A stretch of DNA of 64,000 bases from Trueperaceae bacterium (GCA_040905465.1 JBBDRK010000049.1:96001-160000), one strand, 5' to 3'; shown: positions 29,377 through 60,479, counted from the stretch's first letter. Notes: generated by a model not told the origin, from the letters alone. Numbers and translations: made by a program.

Positions 29377-30812
29377 TGCCGATCACCGTGGCGTTTCTTC
29401 CACCACTCCCTGAAAAACTCCTTCGGCACCGCCCGCAGGTCCCGCGTGGCACTCCAGCCGCGCAGGTAACCGGGCAGGCTCTCGATCCGGCCCCGGCGTA
29501 CGAAGGGCAGCTGCGCCACCCGGCTCACTCGCTGCGCCCGCTCGTACAGTCGCGGGCTGGCGAAAACCCGCGCGGCCGCCCGCATGGCCAGCCGCTCGGG
29601 ATCCAGCGAGGACCGCAACCCGCCCCGCTCGCTTCTCGCTGCCACCACCTGCCCGCGCAGGTGCACCAGCAGCTCCGGAATGTTTATCTTCACCGGGCAG
29701 GCGTCGAAGCACGCGCCGCACAGCGTCGATGCGTAGGGAAGCGATTCGAAGCGGGCCAGCTCGCGCAGCTGCGGTGTGAGCACGGCCCCGATCGGACCGG
29801 GGTAGACCGAGCCGTACGCGTGCCCGCCGGTACGCTCGTAGACCGGGCAGGCGTTGAGGCAGGCGCTGCAGCGGATGCAGTGCAATGCTTCGCGGCCGAC
29901 CTCGTTCGCCAGCACCTTGCTGCGGCCGTTGTCGAGCAGCACCAGGTGGAACTCCCGGGGACCGTCGACCTGATGGACTCCCGTCCAGAACGAGGTGTAG
30001 GGGTTCATCCGTTCGCCGGTGGAGGAGCGCGGCAGCAGTTGCAGGAACACCTCCATGTCCTGCCAGGACGGCACTAGCTTCTCGATCCCCATGACGGTGA
30101 TCAGGGTTCGGGGCAGCGTGATGCACATGCGACCGTTGCCCTCCGACTCCACCACGCATACTGTGCCGGTTTCGGCCACCGCGAAGTTGGCGCCGCTGAT
30201 GCCGACCGTCGTGCTCAGGAACTTCTGGCGCAAGTACTTGCGGGCGGCGCGGGTGAGGTCGGCGGGGTCGTCGCTCAACCCGGTCTCTCCCAGGGTCCGG
30301 GCGAACAGCTCCCTGATTTCCGAGCGATTCTTGTGGATCGCCGGAACCAGGATGTGGCTGGATGCCTCGCCGGCCAACTGGATTATCAGCTCGGCGAGAT
30401 CGGTCTCGATGGCCTGCACGCCAGCGTCCGCCAGAGCGTCGTTGAGGCGGATCTCGTCGGTAGTGAGCGACTTGACCTTGATCGCCTCGGAAGAACCGGT
30501 TCGCCGCACCAGCTCACCGACGATGCGATTCGCCTCGTCGCCATCCTCGGCCCAGTGCACGGTGCCGCCGGCGGCAGTCACCCGCTCCTCCAGTTGCAAC
30601 AGGTAGGAGTCGAGGTTTCGCATCGTCTGCGCCTTGATGCGCCGGCCGGCCTCGCGCAACTGCTCCCAGTCGGGCAGTTCGGCGGTCAGTGCAAGGCGCT
30701 TGGCACGGATTGCGCTGGTGGCCTTGCCCAGGTTGCGCCTCAACTGGGAGTCTTCGAGCGCCACCTTCGCCGCGTCGGGAAACGGCACCATCGGTAGCTC
30801 AAGGCGTGACAT
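29373..30812 (-). CDS. lutB: Lactate utilization protein B (Fe-S protein)
   Basis: [36 protein letters not shown] and [13 protein letters not shown]. Confidence 0.93.
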
Positions 30813-31698
30813 CGGCGCCCTCCACCCGGCCGCTGCGACTGTGGCCGATCCCGCCAGCGCCATCCGCGTCCCCGCTCACATCTCGAGTGCGGCCGATCCA
30901 GCCACCATCGATCCCGCCCCTGTTCTCCTCAGTACGGCCGCCACTATCCGCCGGCGCCTCCGCTGCATCATCCATCGTGCTGGCGAGGATCTCGGCGAGA
31001 TGGACTGCCCGCACGCCGGTTCGGCCCCGCGACAACGCTCCACCAATGTGCATCAGGCAGGAGTTGTCGGCCGCCACGCACGCTTCCGCTTTGGTGGAGA
31101 GCACGTTGGCCACCTTGTCGCTCAGCATCGCCATGCTCGTATCGGAATTCTTCACGGCGAAGGTGCCGCCGAAGCCACAGCACGTTTCGGCATCGGGCAA
31201 CTGCACGATCTCGATACCGCGCACCGCCCGAAGCAGCTTCAGCGGAGCGTCACCCACCCGAATCGCACGCAGGCTGTGACATGTGGGGTGATAGGTCACG
31301 CGGTGCGGGTAGTAGGCGCCCACGTCCTCAACCCCCAGTTGCCCCACCAGGAACTCCGAGAGTTCGAAGGTGCGCTCCCCCACCGCTTCGACGGCCGCAA
31401 CCAGTTCTTCGTCACCAACCTGCCGGGCGAGGTACGGGTAGAACTCGCGTACCATCCCCACGCATGAAGCCGACGGCGCCACGACCGCGTCGCCGCCGGC
31501 GAATACCTCGACGAAACGGCGGGCCAAGGTCAGGGCCTCCTGCTGGTAACCGGTGTTGAAGTGCATCTGCCCGCAGCACGTTTGCGCGGCCGGGAAGTCC
31601 ACCTGCAAGCCGACTCGTTCCAGCACCCGCGTCATTGCCACCGCCGCCTCGGGATAGAGCGTGTCTACATAGCAGGGGACGAAGAGTGAGACTTGCAA
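30799..31698 (-). CDS. lutA: Lactate utilization protein A (CCG domains) with a low-complexity C-terminal tail
   Basis: QTCCGQMHFN, YHPTCH, CCGFGGTF and SCLMHI; AAGGAG RBS before TTG. Confidence 0.93.
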   Translation of the reverse strand: MQVSLFVPCYVDTLYPEAAVAMTRVLERVGLQVDFPAAQTCCGQMHFNTGYQQEALTLARRFVEVFAGGDAVVAPSASCVGMVREFYPYLARQVGDEELVAAVEAVGERTFELSEFLVGQLGVEDVGAYYPHRVTYHPTCHSLRAIRVGDAPLKLLRAVRGIEIVQLPDAETCCGFGGTFAVKNSDTSMAMLSDKVANVLSTKAEACVAADNSCLMHIGGALSRGRTGVRAVHLAEILASTMDDAAEAPADSGGRTEENRGGIDGGWIGRTRDVSGDADGAGGIGHSRSGRVEGADVTP

Positions 31699-31745: not shown

Positions 31746-32729
31746 TTACCGCGGCACCGTAAGCACGATCTTGCCGATGTTCCTGTTCGCTTCCATGTAG
31801 GCGTGAGCCTCCTCGGCCTGGTCGATCGGAAAGGTTCGGTCGATCACCGGCCGCAGCACCCCGCTCTGCAGGTCGGCACCGAATCGCGCCAGGAACTCGT
31901 CCTTGAGAGAGATCTTCTCTGCAACCGGTCTGCTTCGCAGCGTCGCGCCGACCAGTTCCAGTCGTTTGCGGGTCAGGCTGTAGATGTCGAGCTCGAGCTT
32001 GCTCCCGCTCAACGCCGCCACGAAAACCAGCCGCCCCCGGACGTTCATGAGCCGCAGGTTTCGGTCGAAGTACTCCCTGCCCACCATGTCGACGACGACA
32101 TCGACGCCACCCCCCGAGAGGAGCGCGCCGAGCCTCTCTTCGAAATCCTCTTCCCGGTAATTGACGGCAATCTCCGCGCCCAACGCCTCGCACGCCTCGG
32201 TCTTCGCCCGGCTTCCTGCCGTCGCGAACACCCGGCAGCCGGCCCTGTGGGCCATCTGGATTGCAGCCGTGCCCACGCCGCTCGCTCCGGCGTGGATCAG
32301 AACCGTCTCCCCAGGCTTGAGTCGGCCCTCCCAGAACAACGCGGAGAACGCCGTAAGGAACACCTCCGGAACCGCGGCGGCCTCCGTGAGCGTGAGTGAG
32401 GCGGGAACCGGAATCAGCATGGCAGCCGGCACCACCGCCTCTTCGGCGTAGCCGCCGCCCGGCAGGAGGGCACACACCCGGTCCCCCACCGACCAACCGC
32501 CGACCTCCGCGCCCAGTTCGCGGACCAGCCCCGCCATTTCCAGGCCCATGATCTCGCTGGCACCCGGCGGCGGGGGATAGTTGCCCGCCCGCTGCAGCAG
32601 GTCGGCACGGTTGAGTGCGGCGGCGTGCACGTCCACCCGAACCTCGTCGGGGGCGAGTTTCGGGGCCGCGACCTCCGACCAGCGCAGAGGTGCGCCCGCC
32701 TCCTGTTCACCGACGATGATCGCCTTCAC
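31746..32729 (-). CDS. NAD(P)H-quinone oxidoreductase, PIG3/zeta-crystallin family
   Basis: NRADLLQRAG.YPPP.GAS, GLE.AG, LIHAGASGVG and GKIVL. Confidence 0.92.
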   Translation of the reverse strand: MKAIIVGEQEAGAPLRWSEVAAPKLAPDEVRVDVHAAALNRADLLQRAGNYPPPPGASEIMGLEMAGLVRELGAEVGGWSVGDRVCALLPGGGYAEEAVVPAAMLIPVPASLTLTEAAAVPEVFLTAFSALFWEGRLKPGETVLIHAGASGVGTAAIQMAHRAGCRVFATAGSRAKTEACEALGAEIAVNYREEDFEERLGALLSGGGVDVVVDMVGREYFDRNLRLMNVRGRLVFVAALSGSKLELDIYSLTRKRLELVGATLRSRPVAEKISLKDEFLARFGADLQSGVLRPVIDRTFPIDQAEEAHAYMEANRNIGKIVLTVPR

Positions 32730-32760
32730 AGTTCGACTCCTTTCGAACTCCGCCGCATCG

Positions 32761-32940
32761 GGGTCGTTCGCGCATGGGTCATTCGCGTCCGGGTCATTCG
32801 CAACCTCGCCGGAAGCGGGCGGGTCGGATGCGGGCGGACTGTTCGCGCCACGGTCGGTAGCGGCCGGGTCATCCGCGCCCGCGTCGGTAGTGGGCGGGTC
32901 GGTAGCGCCGGGGTCATTCGCGCCCGCGTCGGTAACGCGC
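32761..32940. repeat. Degenerate 15-bp tandem repeat, 12 units (consensus approx. GGGTCRTTCGCGCCC)
   Basis: Units in register from 32761: gggtcgttcgcgcat / gggtcattcgcgtcc / gggtcattcgcaacc / ... / gggtcattcgcgccc / gcgtcggtaacgcgc. Confidence 0.85.
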
Positions 32941-34587
32941 AGCGCCTGCCTCGGTAACGTACCCTTCGTTCAGGTCGCGCTCAAGCAGCTCCGGAGCGCG
33001 CTCCTCCGGCAAGCCGAAGCCGCTTCCTCCCGGCATGTCAATGGTGACGACATCCGCCGGCGTCCTCAACTCCGCCATGCCGTGCAGCTCGCCGTTCTCG
33101 AGCCGCCCTTCGGGAGTGTCCAGCGCGACTCCGGCCAGGCTGCCCGCCTGCCCGCCGTGCAAGCCCGGCGTCGCTACGATCATTCCTTGCGGATGAAGCG
33201 AGAGCAGGGAGGCCTGGCCGTCATCGAACAGCTTGCGCAGCCGCAACCGCTGACCGAGTCCGCCGCGGTGCCGGCCCGGGCCGCCGCTGTCGGCGATGAA
33301 CGCCTTCTCCTCCACCAATAACGGCGTGCGCGTTTCGAACATCTCGATCGAGGTGTTGCCTGCCGACGTGGGGTAGAGCAGCGCGCTCTGGCCGTCACCT
33401 GAGAGGCTGGCGCCTTGCCCGCCACCCTGGAATACGTGATCGTTGTAAACGTTGCCCTCGGCGTCCCGGCCGTAGGCGGCGGCTCCCATCGGCAGCCCGG
33501 TAAACGCCTGCACCCGCTCCGGCAGGACCTCTGCTAGCGCGGCGAAGATCGCCGGAGCACAGTACCAGCCCGTCTGGGTGCGTTGGTTCACGGCCGCCGG
33601 ATAGACGCAGTTGAGGACGCTACCTTCAGGCGCCGTCACCTCGATCGGCCGGAAGCAGCCGGCGTTCGACGGTATGTCGGGCGTGAGAATGCACTTAAGT
33701 GCGTAAACGGTATGAGCAGCGGTGTAGTTCATGGTGCAGTTGATTCCGCCCATAGGCTGCTCGGGGGGCGCCTCCCAGTCGACATGCAGCGTTTCCCCGG
33801 CGACCGTGATCGATACCGCCAGCTCGAGCGGCTCGGCGTGGCCGTCGAACTTCACCCGACTGCGGTACACGCCGTCGGGAACCGCCGCAACCGCCTCGCG
33901 CATGGCGCCCTCGGCGCGCGACTGTACCTCGTAGGCCAGGGCCCGCAGGTCGTTCAGCTCGTAGGCTTCCATGAACGACAGCAACCGGTGCATCGCCACC
34001 TTGTTGGCGCTGTGTTGCGCCTGGATGTCGCCCAGCACCATCTCGCCCTTGCGCACGTTGCGCTCGATGAGGGCGAACAGGCTCGCGTTCGGGACGCCGG
34101 CCTCGTAGAGCTTCATAGGTGGAATCTGCAGCCCCTCCTCATACACCTCGCGAACCGACTGGTAGTGCCTGGTACCGCCGATATCCGAACAGTGAGCGAT
34201 TGAGCCCACCAGCGCAACCAGGTCGCCGTGGCGGAAGACAGGAGTGACCAGCGCCACGTCGAAGAGGTGGCCGGCGCACAGCCACGGATCGTTGGTGACG
34301 AGTACGTCACCCTCACGCAGCGTCTCCTTCGGAAACTGCTCGAGCAGCGCCTTCACCGCCCGCGGCAGGGTGAGGTTGAAGACCGGCATCGAGCGAGGTG
34401 AGTGGGCCAACGACTCGCCGTCGGCATCGAGCAGTTCGCAGCCGAAATCCTGAGCTTCGCCGATGATGGTGCTGAAAGCGGTCCGCCAGATCGTGATCCA
34501 GCACTCCTCGGTAATGTTTACCAGACGGCTCCACATCACCTCCAGGCTCACCGGATCGAAGGCGGGCTTGGGGGTTGCTCCACTCAT
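32914..34587 (-). CDS. Hydantoinase B/oxoprolinase family protein
   Basis: DPVSLEV.W.RL, RTAFS.II.E..D, NDP...GHL.D, H..DIGG, EEGL.IPP and GG.G..RGGLG. Alternative start at 34641. Confidence 0.92.
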   Translation of the reverse strand: MSGATPKPAFDPVSLEVMWSRLVNITEECWITIWRTAFSTIIGEAQDFGCELLDADGESLAHSPRSMPVFNLTLPRAVKALLEQFPKETLREGDVLVTNDPWLCAGHLFDVALVTPVFRHGDLVALVGSIAHCSDIGGTRHYQSVREVYEEGLQIPPMKLYEAGVPNASLFALIERNVRKGEMVLGDIQAQHSANKVAMHRLLSFMEAYELNDLRALAYEVQSRAEGAMREAVAAVPDGVYRSRVKFDGHAEPLELAVSITVAGETLHVDWEAPPEQPMGGINCTMNYTAAHTVYALKCILTPDIPSNAGCFRPIEVTAPEGSVLNCVYPAAVNQRTQTGWYCAPAIFAALAEVLPERVQAFTGLPMGAAAYGRDAEGNVYNDHVFQGGGQGASLSGDGQSALLYPTSAGNTSIEMFETRTPLLVEEKAFIADSGGPGRHRGGLGQRLRLRKLFDDGQASLLSLHPQGMIVATPGLHGGQAGSLAGVALDTPEGRLENGELHGMAELRTPADVVTIDMPGGSGFGLPEERAPELLERDLNEGYVTEAGAARYRRGRE

Positions 34588-34615
34588 CTGTGCACTTCCG
34601 AAATCTTCACGTGAG

Positions 34616-36754
34616 TCATCCTTCGTTCTTTCGAAGCGCATGGACCGGCCGCCCGGCAGCGACGTCGATAGACACCCTCAGGTTGCCGGCGTCGTCCACC
34701 TGCAACAGGTCGCCGGGGGGAATCACGGTGGTGCTTTCGCGCTCCTCGACTATGAGCGGACCATCGATCCGAGCGCCCAAGGGCAGGGCTTCGCGGCCGT
34801 AGACCGGCGTCTCGACAAAACCGCGCGTTTCCGGGAAGTACGCCGAGCGCATCCCCTTGGGCGCCAACGGCGCGGCGGCCCGTGAAGGGTCGGCATGCAG
34901 GTCTACCCGCGGCTCCGGCCCGATGCCGCGCAGCCGCCAGCTCATCGCCATCGGCCGGTATCCCGCCAGCACATTGTGGTAGCGCTCGCCGTATACGCGC
35001 TCGAAGGCCTCGCTGAGGGCCGGGCCGATCGACTCATCTATCGGCCCGCCCGGCAAAGGCACCTCGATCTCATGGAACTGGCCGATCAGGCGAGCCTCCA
35101 CGGAGCGTTCGATGCGCACGTCGCCGCCGTTCACGCCGGCACGCCCGAGCAGCGCTCGCGCCTCGCGTTCCATCTCGGCGAACAGTTCGGCAATGGCAGT
35201 CCAGGTGAGGGTGTCGAATGCGCCGGGGTAGGAACGGACGATCTCGAAGCTGGTGGGCGCAACCAGGAAGCCGAGCGCCGACGCCACCCCCGACACCGGC
35301 GGAACAAGCATGCTCCGGGCGCCGAGGATTCGAGCGACCCGCGCCGCATGGGCCGGTCCCGCACCCCCGAAGGCCAATAGCGGAAAATCGCGCGGGTCCT
35401 GATCCTTCTCGATGATGTGTACCCTCGCGGCCCGCGCCATGCTCTCGCATACCACTTGGTGGACACCCCAGGCAGCCTCCACTGCGTCCATTTCCAGGTC
35501 GCGCCCGAGCGCCCCCAGACTGCGCCGTGATGCATCGGCGTCGAGCCGCATGCTCCCGCCCAGAAAGAACTCCGGGTCGTAGTAACCCAGCAGAAGGCAG
35601 GCGTCGGTTACCGTCGGTTCGGTACCGCCTCGACCGTAGCAGGCCGGTCCGGGATCGGCGGATGCGCTCTGCGGCCCCACTTTCAGCAGGCCCAACTGAT
35701 CGCGGCGGGCGATCGAACCGCCTCCTGCCCCGATCTCGATCATGTCCACCACCGGCGCCCTTATCGGCAGACCGGAACCCCGCTTGAACCGGTGCACCCG
35801 GCCTGCTTCCATCTCGGCGGCGATGTCGGGCCTCCCGTTTTGAATGAGGCAGGCCTTGGCGGTGGTGCCGCCCATATCGAAAGACAGCAGGTTCCGCTCG
35901 CCGGCCCTGCGCCCAAGATAGGCGGTCGCCAAAGCCCCGCCGGCCGGCCCGGACTCGAGCAGGCGGATCGGGTAGCGACGGGCGATCTCCGGTGAGGCGA
36001 TGCCGCCGCTGCTGAGCATCAGCGAGAAGCGGCCCAGGAAACCGCTCTCAGCCAAGGCTGCCTCGATGCGCGCGAGGTAACGGTCCATCAAGGGCTGTAC
36101 GTAGGCGTTGCAGGCGGTCGTGTTGGTCCGCTCGTACTCGCGTATCTCCGGCACCACGTCGTACGACGCGCTCACGTAGAGGCCAGGGTGACGCCGGCTG
36201 ACCCGCTCTGCGACGGCCCGCTCATGATCCGGGTTGCGGTAGCTGTGGAGCAGGCAGATCGCCAGCGCCTCGACACCGTCATCAACCAGTCGGTCGACCA
36301 GGGCGTCGACCTGCTCGAGGTCGATCGGCCGGAGGACCTCCCCGTCGCGGCTGAGGCGCTCGTCCAGCTCGAGGCGGTGTCTGCGCGGAACGACCGGTTC
36401 AGGGTAGTTCAGGAACAGGTCGTATATGTCGTAGCGCTGCTCGTGCCCCATCTCGAGCACGTCGCGGAATCCGCGGGTGGTCAAGAGGCCGGTCGGACGT
36501 CCGCGACGCTCGATGACGGCGTTGGTCACGAGCGTGGTTCCGTGGATCACGGCGTCTACCTGGGTAAGCTCCACGCCGGCCATGGCGAGCAGTTCCTGCA
36601 ACCCCTGCAGGGCACCGACCGCCGGATCGTCGGGGGTGGTCAGGCACTTGTGCAACTGCAGTTGATCGTTCGTGCGGTCGAGCAGAACCAGGTCGGTAAA
36701 GGTTCCGCCGATGTCGAGACCTACCTGAAAGTCTTGCCGTCCGGCGCTGCTCAC
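34616..36754 (-). CDS. Hydantoinase A/oxoprolinase family protein (ATP-binding subunit)
   Basis: DIGGTFTD, HGTT..TNA, ESGPAGG, DMGGTT, IGAGGGSI, PGPACYG and FGGAGP. Confidence 0.94.
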   Translation of the reverse strand: MSSAGRQDFQVGLDIGGTFTDLVLLDRTNDQLQLHKCLTTPDDPAVGALQGLQELLAMAGVELTQVDAVIHGTTLVTNAVIERRGRPTGLLTTRGFRDVLEMGHEQRYDIYDLFLNYPEPVVPRRHRLELDERLSRDGEVLRPIDLEQVDALVDRLVDDGVEALAICLLHSYRNPDHERAVAERVSRRHPGLYVSASYDVVPEIREYERTNTTACNAYVQPLMDRYLARIEAALAESGFLGRFSLMLSSGGIASPEIARRYPIRLLESGPAGGALATAYLGRRAGERNLLSFDMGGTTAKACLIQNGRPDIAAEMEAGRVHRFKRGSGLPIRAPVVDMIEIGAGGGSIARRDQLGLLKVGPQSASADPGPACYGRGGTEPTVTDACLLLGYYDPEFFLGGSMRLDADASRRSLGALGRDLEMDAVEAAWGVHQVVCESMARAARVHIIEKDQDPRDFPLLAFGGAGPAHAARVARILGARSMLVPPVSGVASALGFLVAPTSFEIVRSYPGAFDTLTWTAIAELFAEMEREARALLGRAGVNGGDVRIERSVEARLIGQFHEIEVPLPGGPIDESIGPALSEAFERVYGERYHNVLAGYRPMAMSWRLRGIGPEPRVDLHADPSRAAAPLAPKGMRSAYFPETRGFVETPVYGREALPLGARIDGPLIVEERESTTVIPPGDLLQVDDAGNLRVSIDVAAGRPVHALRKNEG

Positions 36755-37686
36755 TTGTTGGCCACCCGCTGCAACTGCGTCATCGGTCCGTACAGGCCAA
36801 CCAGCCGTTCGAACTCCACCGGATCGTAGAAACTGAGTTCACCCGCGCCGAAGCGCTTTGCGACTTCGATCGCGAACTGGCCCGCCGCGGCGGCGTCTTC
36901 GGGCTGGGTAGCGCCGGTGGCGCAACCCGGCACCGGCACCTCGGCGGTCAGGGCAACGCCGACCACCGGAGCGTTCGTGGAGACGGCGGGTTGCATTATC
37001 GAGTTGATGTGGAACACCTCGTTCCCATAAGGGGTGATGTCCTGCATGGTGATGGGTAACACCAGCGGACGTTTGCCGGTGACCCAGCCAAGCGTGTCGA
37101 GCAGGTCATCCGCCACGCGTACGATCCAGCCCTGTACCACCGTTGCGGTGATCGCCACGCCGCGCTGGTTGATCACCCGGTTACCGCGGGTGGTGTCGAT
37201 GGAAAGCACCGCGTCCATCTCGGGCACGACCTCGTGGTCGTTCATGAGAGCCGAGTCGACGGGCGAGCCCATCAGCGGAACCGGTTGGTGCGGCCGCACC
37301 GGAGCGTCGGGGCAAACGTGGGTAGTGATGATCACGTCCCCGGCAAGCCGGTCTCCGGCCGCGACCATCTCTATCAGCTTGCGGGCGGCGGCCAGCGCTG
37401 CCAGCGCGCCGTCACCGTCGGATACGTGACCGACAAGCGCCGGCCGAGCTCCCGAACCACCCAGCCGGCCGATTACGCCGAGAGTCGGGGCGTCTCCCCC
37501 GGCCGTTTTGCCTTTCAGTCCCGGAATCCGCACGCTCACGTGATCGGTCCCGCCGATTTCGCCTCGCAGGCGGCGTACCGTAACCTCCGCCAGGCCGCTC
37601 GCCTGCAGCGCGTCTTTTACTGTCTCTCCGCTGGCGTCGGGTCGGTCCAGAACGTCCAGGAGCTCGATGACCTGGCGCAGGATCAT
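36751..37686 (-). CDS. DUF1177 family protein
   Basis: PTLGVIGRLGG.GARP, VSDGDGA, LSIDTT.GN, QDITPYGN..HINSIMQP and C.TGA; YG.M at the C-terminus. Confidence 0.8.
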   Translation of the reverse strand: MILRQVIELLDVLDRPDASGETVKDALQASGLAEVTVRRLRGEIGGTDHVSVRIPGLKGKTAGGDAPTLGVIGRLGGSGARPALVGHVSDGDGALAALAAARKLIEMVAAGDRLAGDVIITTHVCPDAPVRPHQPVPLMGSPVDSALMNDHEVVPEMDAVLSIDTTRGNRVINQRGVAITATVVQGWIVRVADDLLDTLGWVTGKRPLVLPITMQDITPYGNEVFHINSIMQPAVSTNAPVVGVALTAEVPVPGCATGATQPEDAAAAGQFAIEVAKRFGAGELSFYDPVEFERLVGLYGPMTQLQRVANK

Positions 37687-37741
37687 GGGGCTGCCGCTAC
37701 GGCGCGCTGCGCTTTCGTGCAGTCGTGGTCTCGACCAAGAA

Positions 37742-38422
37742 TCACAGGGCCACCTCGGCCGCCAGCCTGGCGGCCAACGAGCGCGCAAGCACTACCTGCC
37801 CCGGAAACGCCTCTCTTGCCGCGTCGCGCATCCGGAGGTCGTAACCGAAGCAGTCGAGGAAGCAGACCGCGGCTCCAGCGTCCGCCGCCCTCCCCGCGGC
37901 AGCGGCGACTCCCGGCACCGGATCGCTGCAATACGGGTCGGCATCCACGACGAAAGCGTCCACTCCCATCGACGACCACTTGCGCCGCGCCTGCGTGACC
38001 TGACTGGCCAGCGGCGTCAGCGAAGCTACCCGCCCACCAGCCGCCAGTGCCGTCACTACCGCGTACAAAGCCGACTGAGGCGCAAGCAGCGGACGACGAT
38101 GGCGGAAACTGGGGAACTCGCCGGTGCACATGAGGAGCGTTACCCCCACTCCCTCGTCCTCGAGGTCTTCTATCTGAGCCTGCAGACGCGGCAGCAGGTG
38201 GCGCTTGGCGACCTCGACCGAGCGACCGTCCTGCAAAAGCGTGATCAGCCGATAGTCGTCTTCGCTCGGCGACATCTCCGCAATTTCACCGTCGGTGACG
38301 CCGTCGAGGGCCCCGCGTTCGAGAACCCGCACATCGCCGAGCACCTTGCGCACGTCGCTGGCAAGCCCGTCCCGCCTGGGCGCCTGGCCGATCGTCAGCA
38401 AACCGATGGTAGGTGAGCTCAT
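37742..38422 (-). CDS. aroM: AroM family protein
   Basis: LTIGQAPR, G.LDG, L.T.L.DG, LMCTGEF, A.PY and LDCFGY. Confidence 0.85.
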   Translation of the reverse strand: MSSPTIGLLTIGQAPRRDGLASDVRKVLGDVRVLERGALDGVTDGEIAEMSPSEDDYRLITLLQDGRSVEVAKRHLLPRLQAQIEDLEDEGVGVTLLMCTGEFPSFRHRRPLLAPQSALYAVVTALAAGGRVASLTPLASQVTQARRKWSSMGVDAFVVDADPYCSDPVPGVAAAAGRAADAGAAVCFLDCFGYDLRMRDAAREAFPGQVVLARSLAARLAAEVAL

Positions 38423-39219
38423 CGTTTCTCTCCGTAAACGGACCCCAGGCCCACGAAACGCTCGGTGAGGATGACGGCCAGCACGGTTATAGCTACGCTC
38501 ACGGTCGATGCCGCGGCGGCGGTCGGGTCGAACGAGAACCGCAGGTAGTCGAACAGTTGCACCGGCAGGGTCGTGGTGCCGATGCCTGAGAGAAGCAGCG
38601 AGATCGGGAACTGGTCGAAGCTGGTGATGAATGCCAGCACCGCCCCGGAAACCACGCCGCCCTTGATCATCGGCAGCGTGATCCTCCGGAAGGTAGTGAA
38701 GGGTCCGGCGCCCAGGCTACGCGACGCCTCTTCTATCGACGAGTCGAAGCGAACCAGCACCGAGGTCACGGAGATGAAAACGAACGGCGTACACACCAGA
38801 ACGTGACCCACCCCCAGTGCGAAACCGCCGCTGGTACCGACACCGATGGCGTAGAAGTAGATGAGCAGGGCGATGCCGGTGAGGATGGACGGGAAGGCGA
38901 GGGGCGCCACGAACAGCACGCGCAGGAAATCGCGCAGGCGGCGCGCATGGCGCACCACGAACAGGCTGGCCAGGGTGCCGAGAACGGTTGCCACGAAGGT
39001 GACCCAGAGCGCCAGCCGCAACGAGAAGCCCAGCGCCCTCATGAACGGCCGGTTCTGAAAGAAGTTCTCGAACCAGCGCAGCGAGAAACCTTCGGGCGGG
39101 AACGTCAGGTACTCACCGGAGTTGAATGCCGCCAGCACCACGATCACTATCGGGGCCAGCAGGAAGGCGAACATCAACGTCACGAAGGCCGGAAACAGCA
39201 GTCTTCCGGGTCCGGCCAT
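38419..39219 (-). CDS. ABC permease, PotC-like
   Basis: FPPEGFSLRW, EEASRSLGA, SFD and TTLPV. ATG 39219 overlaps the upstream stop (TGATG). Confidence 0.92.
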   Translation of the reverse strand: MAGPGRLLFPAFVTLMFAFLLAPIVIVVLAAFNSGEYLTFPPEGFSLRWFENFFQNRPFMRALGFSLRLALWVTFVATVLGTLASLFVVRHARRLRDFLRVLFVAPLAFPSILTGIALLIYFYAIGVGTSGGFALGVGHVLVCTPFVFISVTSVLVRFDSSIEEASRSLGAGPFTTFRRITLPMIKGGVVSGAVLAFITSFDQFPISLLLSGIGTTTLPVQLFDYLRFSFDPTAAAASTVSVAITVLAVILTERFVGLGSVYGEKR

Positions 39220-40112
39220 CACGCGATCCCCTTCATCGCGCGAGACATTATCCGGTTGAACAGCGTGATCGTCCCGACGGTAACGGCGAACAAGACCATG
39301 GCGAGGGCACTGCCGAGCGGCCAATTGAACAGATCCATCACCGCCTGCACGATCAGGAGAGGAGCGGTGAGAACGTTGTAGCCGCCAAGCAGGGAAGGGA
39401 TAACATAGGCGCTCACGGACAGCACGAATACCAGCACGGTGCCTGCTGCCACGCCCGGCAGGCTGAGGGGCCACACTACCCGCCAGAACGTGGTCCAGGC
39501 CGAGGCGCCGAGACTGCGCGACGCCTTCTCGAGCTCGGGATCGACATCGGAGAGGGCGTTCATGAGCGAGATCACCATGAACGGCATGTAGACGTGGATC
39601 AGGCCTATCCAGACCCCGGTCTGGTTGTACATCAGCTTGCGCGCGCCGATCCCCATCCAGTTCAGGAACTGGTTCACCAATCCGGTGTCGGACAGCAGGA
39701 TCATCCAGCCGTAACTGCGCACCACCACGCCTACCAACAGCGGCGCAAGGACCAGCGCCAGAAGTATGCCTTTCCGTTTGCTCGACGAGCGTGCCATGAA
39801 ATAGGCGACCGGATAACTCAGCGCCAGGGTCGCCGCAGCGGTGACGATGGCGAACCAGAAGGTGAGCCCGATAATCTCCCAGTTGAAGCCGTCGCTGAGG
39901 ACATTGGCGTAGTTGGCGAGGGTGGCGACGTGATAGTACGGCTCGTCGTATGCGCGTGTGAGGAAGCTGATGTAGAGCATGTTGGCGTAAGGCAGAACGA
40001 AGAAGAAGAACAGCATCACCATGCCCGGAAGCAGCAACAACCATGAGCGCCAGTTGCGATCAGGCGCAGCCGGGCGCTGCGGCCGACGGGGCACCGAAGC
40101 GGCGGCGCTCAC
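39219..40112 (-). CDS. ABC permease, PotB-like
   Basis: YPVAY, VVRSYGW, EKASRSLGA, P.LLGG and NWPLGSA. Confidence 0.92.
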   Translation of the reverse strand: MSAAASVPRRPQRPAAPDRNWRSWLLLLPGMVMLFFFFVLPYANMLYISFLTRAYDEPYYHVATLANYANVLSDGFNWEIIGLTFWFAIVTAAATLALSYPVAYFMARSSSKRKGILLALVLAPLLVGVVVRSYGWMILLSDTGLVNQFLNWMGIGARKLMYNQTGVWIGLIHVYMPFMVISLMNALSDVDPELEKASRSLGASAWTTFWRVVWPLSLPGVAAGTVLVFVLSVSAYVIPSLLGGYNVLTAPLLIVQAVMDLFNWPLGSALAMVLFAVTVGTITLFNRIMSRAMKGIA

Positions 40113-41221
40113 ACCGACGGACCGTTTCCGGAAACAGGCTTGGAGCCCACCACCCAGGTCTTGTGCGCCGGGAAACGAAGCTCGACCGGCGAACCGGGCG
40201 GGAACTCCTCGCCGGCAACCGCCTGGACTCGCAGCGACAGCCCGCCCGCGGCCTCCACCTGGTAATCGACGATGCTGCCGAGATAGGCCAGTTCACGCAC
40301 CTGCCCGGTGACGACGGTGAAATCGCCTTCGCGCCGCAATCCCGGCGCGCCGCTGCCTTCGCTCATGGTGAACGCCTCCGGCCGAACGCAAACCAGCACA
40401 TCCTTGCCCGCCCCGAGCTCACTGCCGCCGCGCGCGGCGATCTCGCCCCACTGCGAGGCGATAGTCACGGCTCCGTCCCGGTTGGAAGTGACCTGACCGG
40501 CGATCAGATTGGCGAGCCCGATGAAGTCGGCTACCCGCGCCGAGGCGGGCCGCTCGTAGATCTCCTTGGGGGCGCCGAGCTGGTGCAGCTCGCCATCCAT
40601 CATTACGGCGATGCGGTCCGCCAACACCAGCGCCTCGGACTGGTCGTGTGTCACATAAATAGTGGTGATTCCGAACTCCCGCTGCAACTCACGGATATAG
40701 AAGCGCATCTCTTCGCGCAGCTTGGCGTCGAGGTTGGCCAGCGGTTCGTCCAGGAGAAGCACCGAGGGATTGATAACCAGGGCTCGAGCCAAAGCTGTTC
40801 GCTGCTGTTGGCCGCCCGAGATCTGGCGAGTGTAGCGGTCGCCCAGGCCGTTGAGTTGGACCTTGGCGAGCATGGCTTCGACCCGGCGGGTGACCTCGGA
40901 CGCGTCGACGGCACGCATCTGAAGTCCATAGGCGACATTCTGGGTCACCGTCATATGGGGAAACAGGGCGTAGTTCTGAAAGACCATGCCGACGTTGCGC
41001 CGTTCGGGCGCCAGGTTGGTGACGTCCTGCTCGCCGAAGCGGATTGCGCCGGCGGTCGGGCGTTCAAAGCCCGCCACCATCCGCAGCGTCGTGGTCTTGC
41101 CGCACCCCGAGGGCCCCAGGAAGGCGATCAGCTCGCCCTCCTGGAGATCGAGGCGCATCCTGTCTACAGCGGTGATGGCGCCAAAGCGCTTGGTCACCTC
41201 TTCGATATGGATACTTGCCAC
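40109..41221 (-). CDS. ABC ATP-binding protein, PotA-like (C-terminal TOBE)
   Basis: [32 protein letters not shown] and YVTHDQ.EA. Confidence 0.95.
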
Positions 41222-41228
41222 CGTAGCT

Positions 41229-42290
41229 TCAGTTCCCCCTGATTTCACGGTTCCAGCGGTTCACCATGTCCTCGCGGGGGCCGGCGTTGAGCCACAACCA
41301 GTCCCACTGGTGGATCTGATCGACCTCGGCGGCGGTTACCGGGATGAGGTTGGCGAGCTCACCCTCGATGGCTACCTCGGTGTTGGCCGGGGTGACGTAG
41401 TAGTTCTCGGCCCATACCTGTTGGGTCTCGGTGTCCAGCATGTAGTCGATGAACGCGAAAGCCAGGTCCTCGACGTCCGTGCCGGCGGTGACGTTCATGT
41501 TCTGTTCGAACATGAAGAGGCCTTCGGAGGGGATCACGAATTCGAGCGGCACCCCTTGCAGCTTCAGGCGAGCCACGGCGGCGGCGTCGAGGATTCCCAG
41601 GTGGACTTCGCCTTGCACGAGAAGGTTCTCCATGTCACCGGAGAAGTCGGTCTGCTTGAACGGACGAAGTTCCTGGAGCAGGTCGAAGCCAACGTCGTAG
41701 TTCTTGGGGTCGCCGGTCTGTATTTCCGCGAGCATCATAAGGAACATCGGAGCGGCCGAGTTGGCGATGTTGTAGATGCCGACATTGCCGCGGTATTCCT
41801 CGTTCCAGAGGTCCATCCAGGACTCCGGCGGGTTCTCGACCAGGTCGGTGCGGTAAGCGATCCCCAGCGGCTGCAGCAGGCCGAGCACGCCGATGTCGTC
41901 CGGAAGCCGGAGTGCGGGATGCACCTTTTCGAGGTTGGGCACCTTCTCCTCGTTGAGCGGAACGAAGCGGTTCTCCAGGCGGCCGGAGCTGATCCAGGTC
42001 TCGTTGGCGATCACCACGTCGTAGGGCGGGTTGGTTCGACCGGCGGCACGAAGGTTCGCCATCCAGTCACGGGAGAGACCGGTGGCCAGCTCGACGGTTG
42101 CGCCGGTTTCCTCCTCGAACGGGGGGAGGATAGTGTCGTTCAGGAACTCCTGCCAGCTGCCGCCGTAACTGGTGACAACCAGCGTCTGGCCCTGGAATGG
42201 TTTGTCCTGCGCCAGAGCGCTGCCGGCCAGCCCGAACAGAGCGATGGTTGTGGCGAAGGCGAGGTTCTTCACGAGCGATTTCGGGTGCAT
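41229..42290 (-). CDS. ABC substrate-binding protein, PotD/AfuA-like
   Basis: Signal peptide; LVVTSYGG, PESW.DLW and P.EG; AAGGAG RBS. Confidence 0.9.
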   Translation of the reverse strand: MHPKSLVKNLAFATTIALFGLAGSALAQDKPFQGQTLVVTSYGGSWQEFLNDTILPPFEEETGATVELATGLSRDWMANLRAAGRTNPPYDVVIANETWISSGRLENRFVPLNEEKVPNLEKVHPALRLPDDIGVLGLLQPLGIAYRTDLVENPPESWMDLWNEEYRGNVGIYNIANSAAPMFLMMLAEIQTGDPKNYDVGFDLLQELRPFKQTDFSGDMENLLVQGEVHLGILDAAAVARLKLQGVPLEFVIPSEGLFMFEQNMNVTAGTDVEDLAFAFIDYMLDTETQQVWAENYYVTPANTEVAIEGELANLIPVTAAEVDQIHQWDWLWLNAGPREDMVNRWNREIRGN

Positions 42291-42376
42291 GCGTTCTCCT
42301 TTGGGGTAATTGCGAATGAAGCCACTTACTTGACGTCCTGCGGTCTACTCCTTCCTGGCATCGAGCCCGAATCGGC

Positions 42377-43213
42377 TCAATCTGCCATGCGACGGTCTGG
42401 CTGTTGCCCTCGACCGAACCGTCGAGCGAGGGAATCTGCGGCGTGCTGCAGCGAGGGCAGCATCGTGAGGGCGCGCTCCCGATCGAATCGATAGGCGGGG
42501 GCTCCGATGGATAGGCCGGCCAATACGCGGCCATCGGCGCCGCGAACCGGCACACCGATTGCGGCTGCGCCGGGGGTGAGCTGGGAGGAGGTGTAGGCGA
42601 AGCCGGCGCGGGCGACCGAACGCATCTCCTGCTTCGCCTGCGCCCGAAGCTCCGGCTGGACCACGGTGCGCGCCAGGATCGACGACCGCTCCGCGTCCTC
42701 CAGAAACGCGAGCACCACCGAGTTCGAGGCCCCGAGGTGGAGCGGGCTGGCAGTCCCAACATCGATGAGCAGTCGCACCTCCTGAGGGGTGTTGACGCGG
42801 GCGATGCAGAGCGCATGCAGACCGTCCCGAACCATCATGAACGCGGTCTCGCCGGTCCTGTCGACCAGGTCCTGAAGGATGGGCTGGGCGGCGGCGGCCA
42901 GCGCATCGAAGTCTCGCGAGCGCCGGGCCAAGGTCCACAGTCGAAAGCCGAGATGGTATCGCGAGTCACTCGGGTCCTGATCGATGAACTGCATCGACTT
43001 GAGAGTGCCGAGCAGCCGGTGCACAGTACTTTTGGGCATTCCCAGGTGGCCGGCCAGGTCTTGCAACGCCCAGTGGGAGCGCTGCTCGAAGGCGGTCAGC
43101 ACGTATAGCACCTTCTCGGCCGCGGAGGCGCTGGAGGCGTCCCGCGGAGTTCGGTCGCCCGTGTCCAGCGACGTCGCGCCGGTTCCGCCTGATAGAACCT
43201 CAATTCCATTCAT
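42377..43213 (-). CDS. IclR family transcriptional regulator
   Basis: LGMPKSTVHRLL.TL, Y.LG, TGET, PLH.GAS and AIGVPV. Confidence 0.93.
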   Translation of the reverse strand: MNGIEVLSGGTGATSLDTGDRTPRDASSASAAEKVLYVLTAFEQRSHWALQDLAGHLGMPKSTVHRLLGTLKSMQFIDQDPSDSRYHLGFRLWTLARRSRDFDALAAAAQPILQDLVDRTGETAFMMVRDGLHALCIARVNTPQEVRLLIDVGTASPLHLGASNSVVLAFLEDAERSSILARTVVQPELRAQAKQEMRSVARAGFAYTSSQLTPGAAAIGVPVRGADGRVLAGLSIGAPAYRFDRERALTMLPSLQHAADSLARRFGRGQQPDRRMAD

Positions 43214-43221
43214 GTGGTTGC

Positions 43222-43250
43222 ACGATAATGCGTAGCGGTAGCGCTGTCAA
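43222..43250 (-). promoter_or_regulatory. Sigma70 promoter TTGACA-17 bp-TATCGT directly upstream of the IclR ATG
   Basis: -35 at 43250-43245 and -10 at 43227-43222; the ATG is at 43213. Confidence 0.65.
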
Positions 43251-43301
43251 CTCAGCTGTCGCGGCCGGTCGGGTCATCGAGACGCAGTACCACGCGGTAC
43301 T

Positions 43302-44465
43302 TCAGTGTGACTGGACCACCTGTTCGAGAACGTCCGGGTCGGACATCAGGTCGGCTGCTATCGACGCCAGTATCCGTGCCCCATCCAGAACGGTGCGATC
43401 TCCACGAGCACTTCGGGCAGCTTCACGGAAAGCCTCCGTGTGCGGCAGCGCGGTGTCGTCGATGGCCAGCATCGCGTGGAGAGAAGGTAGTTGCTGGGAC
43501 ACGTTGCCCATGTCCGTAGATCCGGCCGCGTCACTCTGACTCCACGACGAAACCTTGCGGCCGACCCTGGCGGAATGCGCCTCGAACCGTGACGCGAGAG
43601 CGGTGTTGGTGCGCAACTCTCGATAAGCGGGTGAGGCATCGGCGACCTCGACGGTGGCGCCCGTCATCAACGCGGCGCCCTCGACCACGTTTCGCAGGCG
43701 CGGAGCCAGATCGTCGAAGAGATAGGCGCCGTCCGAGGCCCGTCCCACCAGCAGCATCTCGGCCCGCTCGGGGATGATGTTCGCTGCGTCGCCTCCGTGG
43801 GTGACGATGGCATGCATTCGCACGTCGGGCCGGACCTGCTGGCGGAGCGCGTCGAGGCCGCTGAACGCCAGGCGGACGGCGTCCAACGCGTTCACACCCA
43901 GGTGTGGCGCCAGCGCGGCATGCGCCGGCTTTCCGCGAAATCGGACGTGCCACTTGAAACTGGCGAGCATGGCGATTCCCGACTGGTCCAGGTGGTACGG
44001 ATGAATCATCATCGCGGCGTCGACGTCGTCGAAGACGCCCGCTTCAATCAGGATCGCCTTGCCGCCGCCGCCCTCTTCGGCGGGCGTTCCGATTACCAGT
44101 AACTTGCCGGGCAGCTTACCCATCAACGGAGCAAGTGCGAGACCTGCGCCGATCGCCGCGGTGGCGATGATGTTGTGACCGCAGCCGTGTCCCAGGCCCT
44201 CCAGTGCGTCGTACTCCGCGAGCACCGCCACCGTGGGTCCAGCTCCCGTGCCCGGCAACTCCGCTCGAAAGGCCGTGGCCAGGCCGCCGACTCCTCGCTC
44301 GAGCTGGAAACCTGCCTCTTCGAGCGTGCCGGCAAGGACCGAGCTCGCCTGAATCTCCTGGAACCTGATCTCCGGATTCGCGTGAATTCGGTGGCTCAGC
44401 TCGAGCAGTTCCGCTTCTCGAGCGGCGACAAAGGTATCGATGGCGGCATAGCCTTCGTTTGTCAC
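43302..44465 (-). CDS. M20 family amidohydrolase (AbgB/PM20D2-like)
   Basis: H..PE..FQE, EYDAL..GHGCGHN, GTPAEEGGGGK, HP, AHA..P..G.NALDA, GSTDMGNVS and HT; GGAGGAG RBS before GTG 44465. Confidence 0.92.
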   Translation of the reverse strand: MTNEGYAAIDTFVAAREAELLELSHRIHANPEIRFQEIQASSVLAGTLEEAGFQLERGVGGLATAFRAELPGTGAGPTVAVLAEYDALEGLGHGCGHNIIATAAIGAGLALAPLMGKLPGKLLVIGTPAEEGGGGKAILIEAGVFDDVDAAMMIHPYHLDQSGIAMLASFKWHVRFRGKPAHAALAPHLGVNALDAVRLAFSGLDALRQQVRPDVRMHAIVTHGGDAANIIPERAEMLLVGRASDGAYLFDDLAPRLRNVVEGAALMTGATVEVADASPAYRELRTNTALASRFEAHSARVGRKVSSWSQSDAAGSTDMGNVSQQLPSLHAMLAIDDTALPHTEAFREAARSARGDRTVLDGARILASIAADLMSDPDVLEQVVQSH

Positions 44466-44601
44466 GATGTTCTCCTCCGGTTCACCACCGCTCGATACGG
44501 CAGATGTGGCGTCAGCGATAGCGGGTAGGATAATGCATGCCGAGCACTCCAGCGCCATTCGCCCCGCGGGCTTCCTGCGCATGCGGCGGACGCGGTCGCT
44601 G

Positions 44602-45858
44602 ATGAAAAGAACTCGAAGCGACGGAACTACAACCGTCACCGCCACACTCCCGGCATCCACTAATCGAGCGCGCTACCGCGCCTTCAGGGGCGAGCGCCTC
44701 ACCGCCTACCTGTTCATACTGCCGGCGGTCTTCCTGATCGCCATCTTCGGCATCTTCCCGATCGGCTATACGTTCTACATGAGCCTCTATCGCTGGCGGA
44801 TTCGCAAGGGGTCGTTCATCGGCTTCGACCATTACAGCGATCTGGTGGGCAACTGGGCGGCGGCGCTGGCGTTCATGGTGGGCTTGGCGGCCTTGCTGGT
44901 GGCTCACTGGCTGTGGACGAGCGCTTTCGCCCGCGAAGGATGGCGTCGCTGGCGCAGGTTGGCCGTCTCGCTCACGCTAATGGCGGCCGGCGTGTCGATC
45001 GCCCTTGGCTGGCGCACGATGATGGCCCTGGGAGACGACGAGTTCCTCGGATCCCTGGTGGTAACGCTCTACTATGCGCTCGGCACGGTACCTGTTCAGA
45101 TCGCGCTGGCGCTCGTACTGGCAACCTTGCTGTTTCAGAAAATCCGCGGGAAGGAGGGGTTCCGAATGATCTACTTCCTCCCTTACGTCACGCCGCAGGT
45201 GGCCGCCGCAGTGGTGTTCGCGCAGATCTTCAGCCCCAGAGGCAGCAGCCTGGCGCCCGGCAGCAACAGCGTCGCCAATCAGGTGCTCGCCTGGTTTCGC
45301 ATCGAACCGCAACGGTGGCTGTTCGAGCCGCGACCCCTCACCGAACTACTGTTCGGCGATCAGATCGCGGTTTTCAACGGCTGGCTCGCCGACTCGGGAG
45401 TCGCATGGCAACTGGGCGGACTGTGGCTGGGACCCAGCCTGGCCCTGGTGAGCATCATTCTGTTCGGCGTCTGGACCTACACGGGGCTGAACGTGGTGAT
45501 TTTCCTGGCCGGCCTGGGCGGCATTCCGGTGGAGCTGTATGAGGCCGCCGAGATCGACGGAGCCAATTCACGGCAACGCTTCTGGAGCATCACGATTCCG
45601 CTTCTCTCGCCGGTGACCTACTACCTCACGCTGCTGGGCTTCATCGGCACATTGCAGGCTTTCAGCCAACTGTACGTGATGCGCTCGCCGTTCGCCCGAG
45701 GGACGGTCGATACCGCCAGCATCATGATCTTCGACACCTTCTACAAATCGAACAACTTCAGCCTGGCGGCGGCTCAGTCGTTCCTGCTCTTCTTCGTAAT
45801 CCTGTTCGTGACCATCACCCAACAGCGGGTGATGGGGCGCAAGGTGTTCTATGGCTAG
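44602..45858 (+). CDS. Carbohydrate ABC permease (UgpA/MalF-type) with extra transmembrane insert; start uncertain
   Basis: AYLFILPA, FLPYVTP and ELYEAAEIDGA..RF..ITIPLLSP. Confidence 0.88.
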   Translation: MKRTRSDGTTTVTATLPASTNRARYRAFRGERLTAYLFILPAVFLIAIFGIFPIGYTFYMSLYRWRIRKGSFIGFDHYSDLVGNWAAALAFMVGLAALLVAHWLWTSAFAREGWRRWRRLAVSLTLMAAGVSIALGWRTMMALGDDEFLGSLVVTLYYALGTVPVQIALALVLATLLFQKIRGKEGFRMIYFLPYVTPQVAAAVVFAQIFSPRGSSLAPGSNSVANQVLAWFRIEPQRWLFEPRPLTELLFGDQIAVFNGWLADSGVAWQLGGLWLGPSLALVSIILFGVWTYTGLNVVIFLAGLGGIPVELYEAAEIDGANSRQRFWSITIPLLSPVTYYLTLLGFIGTLQAFSQLYVMRSPFARGTVDTASIMIFDTFYKSNNFSLAAAQSFLLFFVILFVTITQQRVMGRKVFYG

Positions 45859-46720
45859 GGCGCTTGGCGGAGGAGCCTCCGGCCTGGGCTTCAGGCTCCG
45901 TCACCTACCGGTGTATTTCGTGCTGTTGCTCGGTGCGGTCGTCGCCATAACTCCCTTCTTCTACATGCTGTCGACATCTTTCATGACGCTCGGCGAGGCG
46001 ATCAACCGGCAGTGGCTGCCGGCACAACCGCAGGTCGTGAACTTTGAACGCGCCTGGAACGAGGCCGACTTCGCCCGTTATTTCATGAACAGCGTGATCA
46101 TCACCGCCACAACCATCGCCGGACTGCTGATTACCTCCACCCTTGCGGCCTACGCCTTCGCACGCATCCGCTTCCCTGCTCGCGACCTGATCTTCACGAT
46201 CTTGCTGGCCACGCTGATGATCCCTGAAACGGTCACGTTCATCCCCCAGTACCTGATAATCCGCGGCGACGTCTTCCCACTACCCGGCGGCTCTTGGATC
46301 AATACCCTGCAGGCGCTCACCGTGCCGTTCATGGCCAATGCGGTGAGCATCTTCCTGTTGCGCCAGTTCTTCGCGCGCATCCCGTTCGACCTGTGGGACG
46401 CCGCCCGTATGGATGGCGCCGGACATCTGCGCTTCCTGGTGGCGGTGGTGGTGCCGATGAGCAAGCCGGTGATGCTCACCGTCACCCTGCTCGCTTTCAT
46501 CACCTCCTGGAACGCCTTCCTGTGGCCGATCCTGGTGACCAACAACCCGACCTGGCGACCGCTGATGGTGGGCCTCTACAACTTCATGGGCGAGGCAGGG
46601 CCGGAGACGCACCTGCTGATGGCTGGCGCCATGATCACAATCGTGCCGGTGCTGGTGCTCTACTTCATCGCCCAGAAACAGTTCACCGAGGGGATCGCTA
46701 CCTCCGGGCTGAAGGGCTGA
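45851..46720 (+). CDS. Carbohydrate ABC permease (UgpE/MalG-type)
   Basis: AYAFAR..F, IFLLRQFF, DAARMDGA and WNAFLWP. Confidence 0.93.
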   Translation: MARALGGGASGLGFRLRHLPVYFVLLLGAVVAITPFFYMLSTSFMTLGEAINRQWLPAQPQVVNFERAWNEADFARYFMNSVIITATTIAGLLITSTLAAYAFARIRFPARDLIFTILLATLMIPETVTFIPQYLIIRGDVFPLPGGSWINTLQALTVPFMANAVSIFLLRQFFARIPFDLWDAARMDGAGHLRFLVAVVVPMSKPVMLTVTLLAFITSWNAFLWPILVTNNPTWRPLMVGLYNFMGEAGPETHLLMAGAMITIVPVLVLYFIAQKQFTEGIATSGLKG

Positions 46721-60470: not shown

Positions 60471-60479
60471 GCGTCTCCC

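Follow-up and report, generated by a model that had tools for sequence, protein, structure and literature searches.

We analysed a 64,000-nucleotide stretch of a Trueperaceae bacterium genome (GCA_040905465.1, JBBDRK010000049.1:96001-160000; hereafter the window, with positions counted from its first nucleotide), in which a gene cluster at 32914-44465 brings two protein families, AroM and DUF1177, together with a predicted ATP-dependent hydantoinase or lactamase. All genes of the cluster lie on the minus strand, and their count was given as nine from the Pfam and NCBIfam assignments. In order of transcription, they encode an M20D amidohydrolase or dipeptidase (43302-44465), an IclR-family regulator (42377-43213; HTH_IclR and IclR_C domains), a periplasmic solute-binding protein of a distant PotD type (41229-42290; SBP_bac_8), a PotA/PhnT-like ATP-binding cassette (ABC) transporter ATPase with a TOBE domain (40109-41248; PF00005 and PF08402), and two ABC permeases with one BPD_transp_1 domain each (permease 1, 39219-40112, E-value of 9.2e-15; the PotC-like permease 2, 38419-39222). 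These are followed by AroM, with a predicted two-cysteine racemase/epimerase fold (37742-38422; PF07302, E-value of 2.7e-65), the DUF1177 protein of 311 residues (36751-37686; PF06675, E-value of 5.4e-121), HyuA, the alpha, ATP-binding subunit (34616-36754; PF01968, PF05378 and PF19278), and HyuB, the beta subunit of an ATP-dependent hydantoinase/oxoprolinase/lactamase (32914-34641; PF02538, E-value of 2.1e-139).

Stop and start codons overlap by 4 nt between the ATPase and permease 1 (40109-40112), between permeases 1 and 2 (39219-39222), between permease 2 and AroM (38419-38422) and between DUF1177 and HyuA (36751-36754). The overlap of HyuA with HyuB measures 26 nt, and a gap of 55 nt lies between AroM and DUF1177. 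Two blocks within the cluster are joined by such overlaps, one running from the ATPase to AroM and the other from DUF1177 to HyuB. The Pfam calls and the junction coordinates bear out a preliminary description of this DNA, which had reported a contiguous minus-strand cluster with stop/start overlaps. The start of DUF1177, an ATG at 37686, agrees with a 311-residue record (P0004). An open reading frame (ORF) of 541 residues at 38419-40044 was rejected as an artefact, being a long alternative frame across the two real permeases. Scans of 32000-45200 were uninformative, with one promoter-like site (43250-43222, minus strand) where 1.2 were expected by chance and six terminator-like sites where 6.5 were expected. 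The genome, which is 95% complete, carries one copy each of DUF1177, AroM and HyuB, and the top homologues carry labels of Trueperaceae metagenome-assembled genomes (MAGs).

AroM has been known in Escherichia coli for decades. The AlphaFold model of the window's AroM, made with 44 sequences, had a mean predicted local distance difference test score (pLDDT) of 96.3. Its top solved match in Foldseek was a hydantoin racemase of Pyrococcus horikoshii (2eq5, E-value of 7.8e-07), with arylmalonate decarboxylases, allantoin racemases and Asp/Glu racemases next in rank. A VIA-align superposition on 2eq5 gave a Z-score of 18.0 and a root-mean-square deviation of 3.0 Å over 196 aligned residues. The preliminary description had noted two cysteine motifs placed as in Asp/Glu/hydantoin racemases. 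Both motifs, LMCTG (C99) and LDCFG (C191), are present, and both cysteines are invariant in the 44 aligned AroM sequences. As a comparison, 22 racemase-like PF01177 proteins that adjoin DUF1177 in other genomes, and whose invariant cysteines are C79 and C179, were made into a profile. Aligning AroM to this profile with hhalign gave a probability of 90% (E-value of 1.7e-6) and paired C99 with C79 and C191 with C179, in agreement with the noted placement. The racemase fold of AroM, which had been set beforehand as a test, was thus found at the level of fold and alignment.

The window's AroM matches PF07302 and has no PF01177 match in Pfam, and three of the 120 AroM homologues listed also have a precomputed PF01177 match. 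A single-sequence search of PDB sequences gave nothing significant, and a profile search of the same sequences did reach 2eq5, but just at an E-value of 1.2. Based on the model and the profile alignment, we confidently place AroM in the Asp/Glu/hydantoin racemase fold, with the cysteine pair of that family at equivalent positions. A racemase activity is plausible, and no more than that, since decarboxylases and maleate isomerases are also found in this fold.

The structural neighbours of AroM raise the alternative that it is a decarboxylase or cis-trans isomerase of the same fold, in an operon that processes an unsaturated or malonate-type acid amide. Two arylmalonate decarboxylases (3ixl, Z-score of 17.7; 3dg9, 17.4) and a maleate isomerase (2xed, 16.4) do score within about 1.6 Z units of the hydantoin racemase. 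However, arylmalonate decarboxylase retains only one of the two cysteines, whereas both are invariant in AroM and align to a hydantoin-racemase-like pair. The genes found around AroM, moreover, encode amide hydrolases and importers of peptides or amines rather than dicarboxylate pathways. We consider this alternative very improbable.

The resemblance of AroM to racemases, although confirmed here for the fold and the cysteines, is not new. The accessible part of a preprint by Andreas and Giessen (10.1101/2023.09.25.559410) already likens the structures predicted for AroM to those of hydantoin and Asp/Glu racemases. This was the only relevant paper that our searches found for the AroM family, PF07302 or PF06675, and a literature search combining AroM with racemase returned no title that concerns the AroM family.

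The model of the DUF1177 protein had a pLDDT of 90.7. In VIA comparisons, catalytic domains from peptidases of the M28, M20, M42 and M17 families aligned with it at Z-scores of 15-18 over some 220-260 residues. The top VIA-wide scores were to LapB (5gne, 18.0), 1rtq (17.6), 2q43 (17.5) and 5ds0 (17.4), and Foldseek matches had E-values of about 1e-8 (7e-09 to 1qq9). At the sequence level, hhalign found no similarity between the DUF1177 profile and either 20 M20 sequences (probability of 0.2%) or four M28 sequences (0.4%) from its neighbourhoods, and a single-sequence search of PDB sequences had no significant match. DUF1177 therefore appears to share the peptidase fold only, without detectable sequence homology to M20 or M28.

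The preliminary description had also pointed to conserved-looking D/D/H motifs in DUF1177 (SDGDG, SIDTT and HINS) and had suggested a metallo-hydrolase. All three motifs are present in the window's protein, and conservation across 137 distinct sequences is consistent with that suggestion, as is the metallopeptidase-type fold. G93 and D216 are kept in all 137 sequences, T122 in 135, S89, D90 and D92 in 134 each, N228 in 132, D164 and H226 in 130, S162 and S229 in 128, H123 in 127 and C125 in 122. D90, D92, H123, C125, D164, D216 and H226, each kept in 122-137 of the sequences, are candidate metal ligands. The most economical reading of the model and of these residues is that DUF1177 may be a hydrolase with an unusual site rich in Asp, His and Cys.

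DUF1177 is a compact family, with 464 representatives (E-value ≤ 0.001) among 1.84 billion cluster representatives at 50% clustering. The window's protein is 60-62% identical to proteins of Pyrococcus and Thermococcus, and conservation of DUF1177 across domains of life is unusually high. Haloferax volcanii, searched as a control, had matches to DUF1177, AroM, DUF917 and HyuB. A literature search returned no relevant paper on DUF1177. Section 5 of the Andreas and Giessen preprint does not name the family, which may be listed in its supplements.

Several observations concern the physical association of DUF1177 with other domains. For a complex of AroM with DUF1177, the prediction scored 0.00 (mark of 0.32), which is no evidence either way. 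A protein of 532 residues (P0247) is a DUF1177-AroM fusion according to Pfam. We did not count this single sequence, from one contig of 3,991 bp, as evidence, because the DUF1177 and AroM genes often overlap by 4 nt and a one-base error could create such a fusion. Two further proteins of 733 residues each (P0268 and P0274) are PucR-type regulators (GGDEF_2 and HTH_30) with a C-terminal DUF1177 domain, which might serve there as a ligand sensor. Each is a single-member cluster, and one of them comes from a Clostridia MAG recorded at NCBI.

The HyuAB pair has the full domain set of Hydant_A_N, Hydantoinase_A, Hydant_A_C and Hydantoinase_B. Its closest solved relatives are N-methylhydantoinase (7hk5; 424 bits for HyuA and 194 bits for HyuB) and 6yra (365 and 176 bits, respectively). 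Among the NCBIfam equivalogs for caprolactamase, HyuA scored 493 bits to CapA and HyuB 212 bits (its top NCBIfam match), both below the cut-off of 1000. We also asked whether HyuAB might be a housekeeping 5-oxoprolinase. PxpABC is the usual prokaryotic 5-oxoprolinase, and the same window encodes PxpA (LamB_YcsF; 60480-61241, minus strand), followed by a fused PxpB-PxpC-like protein (CT_C_D and CT_A_B; 58932-60425, minus strand), which together (58932-61241) probably form this housekeeping enzyme. Because the genome carries these genes, HyuAB is not needed for routine disposal of 5-oxoproline, and we judged a housekeeping role for it less likely.

The remaining proteins were assigned less specifically. 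The M20D protein scored 230 bits to TIGR01891 (cut-off of 154), and among solved structures it is closest to HmrA (3ram) and the Xaa-Arg dipeptidase PM20D2. The closest solved relatives of the solute-binding protein are polyamine-binding proteins, at 70-90 bits. The transporter missed the NCBIfam Pot equivalogs, with 65 bits to PotD (cut-off of 582), 155 bits to PotC for permease 2 (326) and 352 bits to PotA (482); every equivalog score of the ATPase was under its cut-off.

To determine which of these genes travel together, we collected 80 DUF1177 loci from species-representative genomes, in 54 of which both flanks extend for at least 5 kb. AroM was found in 57 of the 80. It lies downstream of DUF1177 on the same strand in 48 loci, with a gap of at most 100 nt, often a 4-nt overlap, in 32 of these, while the arrangement of the window, with AroM upstream, was found in five. 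Among the 54 loci with longer flanks, AroM was within 2.5 kb of DUF1177 in 39 and within 10 kb in 43. Within the latter distance we also found peptide transporters of the OPT/Opp type (45 loci), other peptidases (M29-like, M20 or S51; 38 loci), DUF917/S-Me-THD-like proteins (25), PF01177 racemases (19) and PucR regulators (17). The deeply conserved unit is DUF1177-AroM amid peptide uptake and peptidases, and not the nine-gene set. The company of DUF1177 suggests substrates derived from peptides no less than lactams.

Some of these loci have features of their own. A soluble protein of 283 residues is encoded between DUF1177 and AroM in ten of the 80 loci (L017:10949-11800 and nine others). It has no Pfam match at an E-value ≤ 0.01 and is a conserved unknown of the module. 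Two loci, labelled as Enterobacter MAG and Serratia records (L047 and L070), have the order IclR-OPT-DUF1177-AroM, followed by a Peptidase_S51 gene resembling dipeptidase E.

The abundance of transporters and peptidases near DUF1177 is compatible with a core function in the salvage of linear peptides with D- or unusual residues. Here, AroM would epimerise a dipeptide or amino acid, DUF1177 would be a stereospecific dipeptidase or aminopeptidase, and HyuAB would be a separate addition whose task is to remove a lactam by-product, for example a ring of the pyroglutamyl type, and not to act on what is imported. Besides the 45 loci with a peptide transporter, the 38 with another peptidase and the 43 with AroM, this is supported by the dipeptidases among the closest relatives of the M20 protein, and by AroM paralogues of the phylum whose neighbours are a genuine M28 peptidase, an MR_MLE protein and Opp genes. 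Conversely, the importer in the window is of the PotD type and not of a peptide type. Moreover, DUF917, a hydantoinase-like family according to the accessible part of the preprint (10.1101/2023.09.25.559410), accompanies the pair in the 25 loci mentioned above, which points to ring chemistry.

The window's own lineage bears further on this question. In a phylum set of 301 genomes that includes the window's own, DUF1177 was found in six genomes, AroM in 16 and HyuA homologues (E-value ≤ 1e-30) in 37. A genome of the same genus (G247, locus L125) has full synteny from M20 through HyuB. Two genomes from two other genera (G152, locus L162, and G231, locus L192 continued on L161) have the order IclR-SBP-ATPase-permease-permease-AroM-HyuA(-HyuB), where SBP is the solute-binding protein and HyuA directly follows AroM. 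In two more (G073 and G118), a single cluster brings together IclR, HyuA, HyuB, Opp genes and DUF917-DUF1177-AroM, in a different order. In G115, two DUF917 genes and a gene weakly resembling HyuA lie divergent to DUF1177, and in G157 the cluster is interrupted by a contig end just beyond IclR.

A quick maximum-likelihood tree of AroM (87 rows) was used to relate these loci; most of its rows were sampled via DUF1177, which inflates the DUF1177 label by design. The window's AroM and those of L125, L192, L162 and L015 form a clade of five, nested among DUF1177-linked AroMs, with a support of 100 in the Shimodaira-Hasegawa-like approximate likelihood ratio test. L015, a MAG carrying the label Bacillota, has its genes in the order seen in the window. 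HyuA and Pot-like ABC genes lie beside AroM in all five members, DUF1177 is present in three and absent from two, and IclR is syntenic in L125, L162 and L192. Thus, a check on co-conservation held within the clade for AroM, HyuAB, the Pot-like ABC genes and IclR, while DUF1177 was found in three of the five members and M20 in the genus only. DUF1177 is dispensable in this HyuAB/Pot-linked operon type, and AroM-HyuAB is its constant part. As HyuAB, and not DUF1177, is the constant partner of AroM in the clade, and as HyuA directly follows AroM in G152 and G231, we regard linear-peptide salvage as an unlikely, if credible, account of the core.

The patchy occurrence of DUF1177 might also mean that the genes share no pathway, and that a mobile AroM-DUF1177 pair landed within an existing HyuAB/ABC operon. 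The six DUF1177 genomes among the 301, the operons without DUF1177 in two genera and the HyuAB homologues found in other contexts are all consistent with this. Such an insertion must, however, preserve the translational coupling in which the DUF1177 stop overlaps the HyuA start. It would also leave unexplained that AroM stays with HyuAB in all five clade members, and that HyuAB, DUF917, DUF1177 and AroM are clustered again, in another order, in G073 and G118. We find an independent insertion improbable.

Other AroM paralogues in the phylum have different neighbours. A separate clade (L185, L186, L188, L191 and L193) adjoins a peptidase of about 600 residues with an M28 domain, accompanied by RpiR or IclR regulators and Opp genes and, in L188 and L191, by an enolase-superfamily MR_MLE protein as well. 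Others adjoin Amidohydro_1 enzymes. AroM is therefore recurrently paired with a peptidase of the MH fold even where DUF1177 is missing, and these contexts fit a general theme of AroM with a stereospecific amide hydrolase.

We then compared the cluster with known systems. The classical hydantoin-utilisation (hyu) system consists of a hydantoin racemase, a hydantoinase, an M20 N-carbamoyl-amino-acid amidohydrolase and a permease. The window's cluster shares its logic of a racemase, a ring-opening amidase, an MH-clan hydrolase and an importer, and AroM shares the fold and the cysteine pair of hydantoin racemase. Unlike in the hyu system, the putative racemase belongs to PF07302 and not to PF01177, the ring-opener is of the ATP-dependent HyuAB type and not of the dihydropyrimidinase type, DUF1177 has no profile link to M20, and import is assigned to an ABC system of the PotD type. 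The cluster follows the logic of hydantoin utilisation with components that all come from other families or subfamilies.

The window's HyuAB shares its two-subunit architecture with ATP-dependent lactam hydrolases, which include N-methylhydantoinase (7hk5), CapAB (6yra) and 5-oxoprolinases of the OplAB type. According to the accessible part of its description, 6yra is the caprolactamase CapAB of Pseudomonas jessenii (PMC8453981). The window's subunits differ from CapAB in falling far under the equivalog cut-offs, as given above. In the literature found, no AroM or DUF1177 partner of an ATP-dependent lactam hydrolase was reported, and no paper joined diketopiperazines with an ATP-dependent hydantoinase or oxoprolinase.

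The closest parallel in gene content is found in clusters of cyclodipeptide oxidase (CDO) that lack a cyclodipeptide synthase (CDPS). According to the accessible part of the preprint, these non-CDPS clusters are enriched in AroM, DUF917, hydantoin racemases, OPT/Opp transporters and peptidases (10.1101/2023.09.25.559410). The DUF1177 loci that we examined keep the same company as described there. The window's cluster differs in its use of HyuAB and a Pot-like importer. Within the cluster we found no CDO-like gene, neither a nitroreductase-like CDOA nor a CDOB, the rest of the genome not having been searched for CDO, and DUF917 is absent from the window's genome.

Taken together, we propose that the operon is controlled by IclR and serves to import and break down a small chiral cyclic amide, which could be a lactam, a hydantoin or a diketopiperazine-like peptide derivative, and we hold the chances of this proposal to be about even. 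The activities, the order of the steps and the substrate class are what we infer from the gene content, folds, conserved residues and synteny described above. The PotD-type ABC system would import the compound, and AroM, as a cofactor-free two-cysteine racemase or epimerase, would interconvert its stereoisomers, so that both could be consumed. HyuAB would then open the ring at the expense of ATP. Finally, DUF1177, as a peptidase-fold hydrolase, would split the linear product to amino acids, and M20D may join in this step in this genus. Chiral hydantoins, amino-lactams, diketopiperazines and 5-oxoproline derivatives would all fit as substrates. The preliminary description had proposed a cascade of racemase, ring-opening hydrolase and deacylase. 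The fold of AroM, the domains of HyuAB and the synteny in the AroM clade make the racemase and ring-opening parts plausible, but the nine genes are not co-conserved.

Several results weigh against the proposed operon for a cyclic amide. HyuA was found in five and HyuB in three of the 80 DUF1177 loci, and HyuA lay within 10 kb in three of the 54 loci with longer flanks. Among 34 metagenome loci scanned for DUF1177, a sample that holds relatives of up to 63% identity only and from which homologues of 70-83% are missing, neither HyuA nor HyuB was beside DUF1177, while AroM was in 20. The idea that the nine genes form one co-conserved set was therefore abandoned. In G152 and G231 (95% and 97% complete), DUF1177 is absent from the locus and from the genome, and four of six fetched loci with HyuA homologues of 56-74% identity (G237, G185, G218 and G171) lack both AroM and DUF1177 in their surroundings. 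Only in the window and in the same-genus genome G247 is M20 next to IclR, with no M20 match in the L162 and L192 sequences. With its synteny confined to the genus, the case for M20 as a member of the pathway, as it had been listed at first, is weak. The PotD-type solute-binding protein suggests an amine-like solute, whereas the wider DUF1177-AroM family goes with peptide transporters. Lastly, the superfamily of AroM includes arylmalonate decarboxylases and maleate isomerases, and the hydrolase role of DUF1177 is a putative one, read from a fold without profile similarity to M20 or M28.

A broader and more doubtful possibility is that AroM-DUF1177 is a near-universal repair or salvage pair for peptide breakdown products that have spontaneously cyclised or racemised. 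Candidate substrates would be diketopiperazines, amino-lactams and dipeptides with D-residues. Such a role would explain the roughly 60% identity that is kept between hyperthermophilic archaea and bacteria of soil and gut. The window, as part of the same doubtful scenario, would show a version of the pair with the racemase wired directly to HyuAB and its ATP-driven ring opening.

The cluster for a putative cyclic amide is bordered by genes of other predicted functions. Directly 3' of HyuB on the minus strand is a zinc-type alcohol dehydrogenase/quinone reductase (31746-32729), and beyond it lie a LutA-like protein with CCG domains (30799-31698) and a LutB-like LUD/4Fe-4S protein (29373-30863). 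On the other side, a second ABC system with two permeases and an SBP_bac_8 protein is encoded on the plus strand (44467-48254), divergent from M20. Its listed start at 44467 abuts the start of M20, and the true start is probably later.

To the extent covered by the accessible part of the preprint, it is already in print, on bioinformatic grounds only, that AroM, DUF917 and hydantoin racemase cluster with peptide transporters. New here is a HyuAB/Pot-linked variant of DUF1177-AroM that has AroM upstream and a full two-subunit HyuAB, together with relatives that have dropped DUF1177. A racemase combined with a lactam or hydantoin hydrolase is an industrial design for the dynamic kinetic resolution of amino acids, so a new pair of this kind could serve as a biocatalyst. 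The window's lineage provides a natural experiment, in which the operon occurs with and without DUF1177 and AroM is always beside an ATP-dependent lactamase, which narrows the search for the substrate. DUF1177-AroM is among the more strongly conserved unexplained gene pairs common to Bacteria and Archaea. Both are orphan families without a reported function, and each now has a testable candidate role, AroM as a two-cysteine racemase or epimerase and DUF1177 as a peptidase-fold hydrolase.

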